A stretch of DNA of 64,000 nucleotides from Escherichia coli (GTDB lineage Bacteria > Pseudomonadota > Gammaproteobacteria > Enterobacterales > Enterobacteriaceae). A program made the position numbers and the translations under genes. Location: assembly GCF_003018255.1 (NCBI RefSeq), contig NZ_CP027440.1; one strand, 5' to 3'. The notes beneath the pieces were generated by a model, which was not told the DNA's origin, did not search any database, and saw only the letters and a program-made list of their open reading frames with translations. The first letter of the stretch is position 1. Each line of letters starts with the position of its first letter. Shown piece by piece: positions 62,495 through 62,672 of the stretch.

Positions 62495-62672
62495 GCCATC
62501 ATCGCAATAGATGGAAAAGCACTCCTGCTCTTTTTTGATTAGAGCCGTGGCAGAGGAACAACTCATATCATCATTGCGATCTCGACAATGTATAGTCTGA
62601 TCCTTCGGCAGATCAAGACGGATAAAAAATCCAATGAGTTCACACTCATCCCGAACTTCTTAACATAATGGA
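62495..62672 (+). pseudogene. Degraded internal fragment of an H-repeat (ISAs1-family) transposase
   Basis: In-frame translation [56 protein letters not shown] resembles H-rpt segment AIDGKTLR...IKTDEKSNEITAIPELL, with an internal stop and apparent deletion. Confidence 0.45.

Follow-up and report, generated by a model that had tools for sequence, protein, structure and literature searches.

The interval at 62469–62700 (plus strand) of the 64-kb stretch of DNA analyzed here (hereafter, the window) is almost certainly a non-functional relic of an insertion sequence of the ISAs1 family, of the H-repeat (H-rpt/ISEc1) type. It corresponds to nucleotides 284–517 of yhhI (codons 95–173 of 378), such that its ~235 nucleotides make up 21% of the intact 378-codon gene. 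Judged by its sequence, the interval descends from a member of the family but is a fragment and not itself a functional member: ISAs1-family coding homology was found both with a family profile and with known transposases, a complete ORF of ~380 amino acids with the N-terminal domain and a full DDE_Tnp_1 domain was not, and neither were the short terminal repeats of the element or a target-site duplication, both ends having been deleted. Reports of H-repeat (ISAs1) elements at Rhs locus ends date back to the 1990s, with the original descriptions reportedly coming from the Hill laboratory. The remnant described here lies in the selA-yibF-rhsA-...-yibH region of E. coli, and an association of H-rpt elements with Rhs loci is stated in the literature (PMC3032704, PMC3486870).

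As reference transposases we used the intact H-repeat proteins YhhI and YdcC of K-12, which were compared with the whole window. At the DNA level, yhhI/ydcC aligned by blastn to 62469–62700 with 79% identity over 234 nucleotides (E = 4e-51), and at the protein level tblastn aligned residues 96–160 to 62471–62665 without a gap, with 39 of the 65 residues identical (60%; E = 4e-19). This was the sole significant tblastn match in the 64 kb (runner-up, E = 2.7), and no H-rpt homology outside yhhI nucleotides 284–517 was found anywhere in the window. In a permissive local DNA alignment to yhhI the score was 132, compared with 12.5 ± 1.5 (maximum 18) in 200 shuffles. The H-rpt elements encoding YhhI (at RhsB) and YdcC (at RhsE) therefore resemble the remnant at these levels of DNA and protein identity, and they share with it both the family and the habit of residing at the distal end of an Rhs locus; unlike the intact 378-codon yhhI and ydcC genes, the remnant carries a stop codon and two frameshifts and has lost its ends.

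For profile searches we used a frame-repaired conceptual peptide of 84 amino acids. It matched the NCBIfam model NF033564 (transpos_ISAs1) at profile positions 69–150 of 314 (E = 1.1e-18), with a score of 67.6 bits that narrowly missed the 70-bit cut-off for whole proteins, as no more than 82 of the 314 profile positions remain, and it matched Pfam DDE_Tnp_1 at model positions 6–83 of 200 (E = 4.4e-5). An exhaustive HMMER scan returned 2082 relatives at E ≤ 0.001, in which full-length proteins of ~380–400 amino acids aligned at residues ~96–177, with no full-length relative in the scan exceeding ~62% identity. A search for protein homologues of the same peptide recovered only short fragments of the same pseudogene in other E. 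coli, deposited from many genomes as short 'hypothetical proteins', which did not inform the parent lineage. The original prediction, that a degenerate remnant of an ISAs1-family (H-repeat) transposase lies ahead of yibH where the Rhs element ends distally, had been staked on the presence of a significant ISAs1 alignment. It stood up to these alignments at both the protein and the DNA level, as well as to the NF033564 and DDE_Tnp_1 matches and to the empty-site comparison described below.

The plus-strand frame starting at 62471 encodes both peptides that the original prediction had likened to H-rpt transposase, AIDGK at 62504–62518 and a second peptide (including KTDKKSNE) at 62615–62653, and both fall inside the 65-residue match to YhhI. 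The internal stop that had been proposed is also real, a TAG nonsense codon at 62540–62542 (plus strand) that replaces Lys118 (AAG) of YhhI. The missing block that had been proposed alongside it does not exist, in that the 32 residues between AIDGK and KTDKKSNE align one-to-one with YhhI. Likewise, the span originally assigned to the remnant (62495–62672) lies within it but is too narrow, as solid homology extends from 62469 to 62700. Alignments to yhhI revealed two further lesions on the plus strand, each a 1-nucleotide deletion that shifts the frame: one at 62652–62653 (ATCCC-GAAC against ATCCCAGAAC) and the other near 62679, at 62678–62680 (ATTAA-CGAAAA against ATTAAAGGAAAA). Past the two frameshifts homology resumes in new frames, with an 11-residue segment followed by KIITAD.

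Beyond these small lesions, everything upstream of codon 95 has been lost, as has everything downstream of about codon 173–180. The remnant thus keeps the AIDGK and ITAD segments, and the C-terminal half with the conserved HWxVENxLHW segment of intact proteins is gone. Lacking the N-terminal 94 codons, the C-terminal ~200 codons, and both element ends, the remnant cannot make a transposase or move. Local alignments to yhhI end at 62700. Frame translation and alignment point to a possible weak continuation on the plus strand at 62701–62723 (...ITADEIICKNN*, compared with ...ITTDAMGCQKDI in YhhI), in which about 10 of 23 bases match and a few residues are similar before a TAG stop at 62721–62723; this similarity is not significant on its own, and transposase homology from 62700 to 62723 is unproven.

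Position, flanks, and lesions identify the remnant as the orthologue of an annotated and thus already known pseudogene of K-12, yibU (b4652). The yibU interval (NC_000913.3 3769948–3770146) maps to 62471–62668 of the window, and 62300–62770 aligned to the K-12 yibV-yibU-yibH interval with 96% mean identity over 475 columns. The two alleles have the same flanks (Imm57/yibV upstream and yibH downstream), the same TAG, the same two 1-nucleotide deletions, and the same 5′ and 3′ breakpoints. They differ in that yibU has an extra G between 62553 and 62554, without which the window allele keeps the old frame through codons 96–156, and in their upstream cargo, which in K-12 comprises yibA, yibJ, yibG, yibS, yibW, and a shorter yibV. 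In the listed E. coli RefSeq records, PGAP places no annotation over the short remnant.

Among 5426 complete E. coli genomes, 3724 carried the remnant segment, always on the chromosome and in one copy per genome. We compared six alleles (the window, K-12, AMSHJX01, DSM 101139, fS25a, and Escherichia sp. MOD1-EC7003, the last from a cryptic clade) and found the same TAG in the window, K-12, and the other four, and both 1-nucleotide deletions in all. Superimposed on these shared lesions were lineage-specific ones: the extra G in K-12-type alleles, a 2-nucleotide deletion in MOD1-EC7003, and an IS1A insertion in fS25a. In fS25a (L009 788–1485), IS1A lies directly upstream of the remnant, and the first ~53 nucleotides of the remnant have been removed together with the Imm57 module. 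Between window-type and K-12-type alleles the remnant differs by ~6%, as do the neighboring spacer and Imm57 gene, compared with 1.7% for yibH, and the substitutions in the remnant are spread evenly over the old codon positions (2, 3, and 3). Between the remnant and yhhI, substitutions at the three codon positions numbered 16, 8, and 19; of the codon changes, 23 were non-synonymous and 11 synonymous. The later damage specific to individual lineages, such as the extra G and the IS1A insertion, fits neutral decay.

Elsewhere in E. coli genomes, intact ISAs1/ISEc1 genes showed about 78–79% DNA identity to the remnant, and no intact insertion sequence closer than ~79–82% was found in the 5426 complete genomes. 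The remnant therefore derives from a diverged H-rpt lineage, one about 20% distant from ISEc1. One candidate parent, an intact ISAs1 copy that DSM 101139 carries a few kilobases upstream within the island, was ruled out as an ordinary ISEc1-type element that is itself 79% identical to the remnant.

The remnant sits at the right edge of the RhsA accessory element, which occupies 56612–62764 (plus strand; ~6.15 kb) and comprises a frameshifted rhsA, an immunity gene, a tlde1 fragment, an Imm57 gene, and the ISAs1 remnant itself. Its boundaries were drawn by comparison with the empty site of Nissle 1917, in which yibF and yibH are 70 nucleotides apart (L005:8932–9001). This comparison placed the left edge at about 56611/56612 and the right edge exactly at the yibH stop codon (62764/62765), leaving the remnant 41–64 nucleotides from the right edge and from the stop of the convergent yibH. 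About 31 nucleotides of filler at the Nissle site resemble nothing at either edge of the RhsA element, and the site thus shows replacement rather than simple insertion with target duplication. The G+C content is 55–69% in the rhs core, 24–40% in the tail, and 52–55% in the flanks. The locus has the expected features of an Rhs element (a GC-rich core, a PAAR-like N terminus, a core-end motif, an AT-rich variable tip, immunity and orphan modules downstream, and accessory presence at one fixed chromosomal position), with RHS_core and Rhs_assc_core matches at the two ends of the rhsA ORF.

On the other side of the right edge lies yibH (62765–63901, minus strand), a gene for an HlyD-family protein that is convergent with the remnant and forms the core-genome right flank of RhsA. 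It was found in 5404 of the 5426 genomes (counting any match), and the segment that includes the remnant was found in about 3670–3724 (the lower figure counting genomes that matched the yibH-region query at a coverage of at least 80%). The yibF-yibH site is rhs position 10 of Jackson et al. (PMC2935791), in agreement with the accessory status of RhsA. That status follows from this presence/absence polymorphism and from the odd G+C content, not from the scrap of insertion sequence, and the original prediction overreached when it took the remnant as a mark of horizontal acquisition. Because the lesions of the scrap are common to E. coli and cryptic-clade Escherichia, they speak for an event in the distant past and subsequent vertical inheritance, not for recent transfer. 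The remnant stably marks where the yibF-yibH island ends on the right.

Between the remnant and the yibH stop, a tail at 62724–62764 that includes a C-rich run (62751–62763) is part of the inserted element, since it is absent from the empty site, and it makes up the right-hand junction, constant across the island variants examined. Over 62701–62764, alleles differed from the window at 0–4 positions (one difference in four of five alleles and four in DSM 101139), fewer than in the remnant proper. Upstream, an AT-rich spacer (62309–62468; 24% G+C in the 62200–62499 bin) runs from the Imm57 gene to the 5′ breakpoint of the remnant and had no H-rpt homology. This spacer contains a sigma-70-like site, TTAACT-(18)-GATAAT at 62360–62389, that would point into the remnant, antisense to yibH; genomic SELEX in K-12 lists a constitutive promoter of the RpoD holoenzyme, yibV>yibU, with the hexamers TTAACT and GATAAT (PMC3946193).

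The upstream neighbor of the remnant is an Imm57-family immunity gene of an orphan module (61787–62308, plus strand), as annotated by RefSeq in a 100%-identical genome. Directly before this intact gene, at about 61550–61782, is a 5′-truncated orphan fragment of tlde1, an L,D-transpeptidase-like T6SS effector gene; we recognized the truncation by comparison with the intact 408-nucleotide tlde1 of DSM 101139. Farther upstream, rhsA is split near its 5′ end into overlapping ORFs at 56803–57141 and 56916–60950, and RefSeq labels it 'frameshifted' in the 100%-identical genome NZ_AP045067.1, so the strain's principal Rhs toxin gene may not be active. An HExxH motif (LAHEMGHA) in the C-terminal tip of RhsA (~60550–60947), past the RHS core-end motif, points to a toxin of the metallopeptidase type. 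Neither this tip nor a putative immunity ORF at 61008–61418 matched an NCBIfam family.

A longer form of the remnant survives beside yibH in other genomes. In a collection containing one genome per species, an exact 30-mer scan found no match to the remnant, and a scan with remnant-specific 24-mers found one other species-level genome, that of Escherichia sp. MOD1-EC7003. At the same yibH junction this genome has a longer remnant (L007:1572–2218) that comprises the H-rpt left end, which is preserved only in the long form (from L007:1572 onwards), and codons 1 to ~173. It shares with the window allele the TAG, both 1-nucleotide deletions, and the 3′ truncation, and has the 2-nucleotide deletion as a private lesion. 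The long form, found in MOD1-EC7003 and E. coli MFDS1022581, is 91% identical to the window remnant over 273 nucleotides and differs from it in retaining codons 1–94; at ≥99% identity it was present in four complete genomes labeled E. coli. In MFDS1022581, PGAP annotates it as 'ISAs1 family transposase; frameshifted; internal stop; incomplete', and the island upstream contains vgrG, hypothetical genes, an EF-hand protein gene, and an N-acetylmuramidase-family gene, with no rhsA, tlde1, or Imm57. Among the four E. coli-labeled genomes, the long form flanking yibH was located at L012:9155–9651.

These comparisons suggest a history in which an H-rpt copy would have come to lie at the distal end of the variable yibF-yibH island and would then have lost its 3′ half and acquired the Lys118-to-TAG change and the two 1-nucleotide deletions, a state that appears to survive in cryptic-clade Escherichia and in the four 'E. 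coli' genomes. Subsequently, in the RhsA-bearing lineage, the part upstream of codon 95 would have been replaced by the tlde1/Imm57 orphan toxin–immunity module, leaving the ~235 nucleotides that now presumably drift as spacer, with the Imm57 gene on one side and the convergent yibH on the other. This is the simplest order of events that accommodates the homology, lesions, orthology, edge position, shared lesions, and distribution that we observed. The presence of the long form with the same lesions beside yibH in cryptic-clade Escherichia implies that the inactivation is old, predating both the split between E. coli and the cryptic Escherichia clade and the exchange of island cargo (RhsA versus vgrG/muramidase).

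Could the similarity instead be a chance or low-complexity artifact of AT-rich DNA, with no insertion sequence ever having been present? The region is indeed AT-rich (24–40% G+C), and the original prediction had matched only two short motifs. However, the E values of the tblastn and blastn matches, the gap-free alignment of 65 codons, the alignment score far above the shuffle maximum, the independent NF033564 match, and the longer form at the same site, with homology that continues through the H-rpt left end, together refute this reading and leave it no probability. The idea that the fragment encodes a small functional protein domesticated from the transposase is scarcely credible. An ORF of 33 amino acids with a GTG start does exist in the window at 62441–62542 (MIYNLNIFKCDCHPSDNKAIIAIDGKALLLFFD), and the deposited 'hypothetical proteins' mentioned above might be taken to favor such a product. 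The start of this ORF is not conserved, however: in K-12-type alleles an extra T throws the GTG out of register so that it reads into a TAA, and upstream of 62467 the cryptic clade has a wholly different sequence. Moreover, substitutions between alleles show no codon-position bias, and only part of the catalytic core is represented in the fragment.

The remnant and its tail might alternatively have been co-opted for the convergent yibIH, as a 3′ UTR, a terminator, or an antisense template transcribed from the sigma-70-like site at 62360–62389, which we consider very unlikely. Consistent with such a role, 62250–62850 contains six promoter-like sites, compared with 2.0 ± 1.3 in shuffles, the region may be transcribed given the constitutive yibV>yibU RpoD promoter listed for K-12 (PMC3946193), and the lower variability of 62701–62764 than of the remnant could mean constraint, for example at the yibIH 3′ end. 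However, AT-rich DNA yields many promoter-like matches from its composition alone. A terminator scan found no terminator-like site or hairpin at the remnant, the predicted fold of the minus (yibH-sense) strand was no better than that of shuffles (z = −1.09), and an Rfam search of the region returned no match at E ≤ 1. In addition, about 1700 genomes, including that of Nissle, have yibH without the segment, which indicates that yibH does not need it, and an IS1 insertion within the region is tolerated in fS25a. A regulatory role of the remnant region is therefore unlikely. The junction as a whole (62469–62764) was found beside yibH under two different cargo islands, RhsA/tlde1/Imm57 and vgrG/muramidase. 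We consider it improbable that this junction persists as a transferable stretch of homology through which T6SS-effector cargo is exchanged, or as a yibIH 3′ regulatory element or antisense promoter region. We found nothing that contradicts the reading of the remnant as a relic, and none of the hallmarks of a functional small ORF or sRNA (a conserved ORF, a structure, or an Rfam family); we infer that its DNA has no present function.

The remnant matters little beyond annotation, and recent horizontal transfer should not be deduced from it. To what was known of yibU our analysis makes modest additions, namely the longer ancestral form and the junction common to two different T6SS-effector islands. 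Elsewhere in the window, a palindromic repeat of the REP/BIME type at 29972–30059 was 79% identical over 89 nucleotides to the REP element downstream of K-12 yhhI and overlapped an Rfam match to the ES036 sRNA (29997–30039, minus strand). Rfam matches at gathering level comprised the cspA thermoregulator (10390–10817), a sok antitoxin RNA of a hok/sok-type locus (11100–11251), and naRNA4 (44248–44326).
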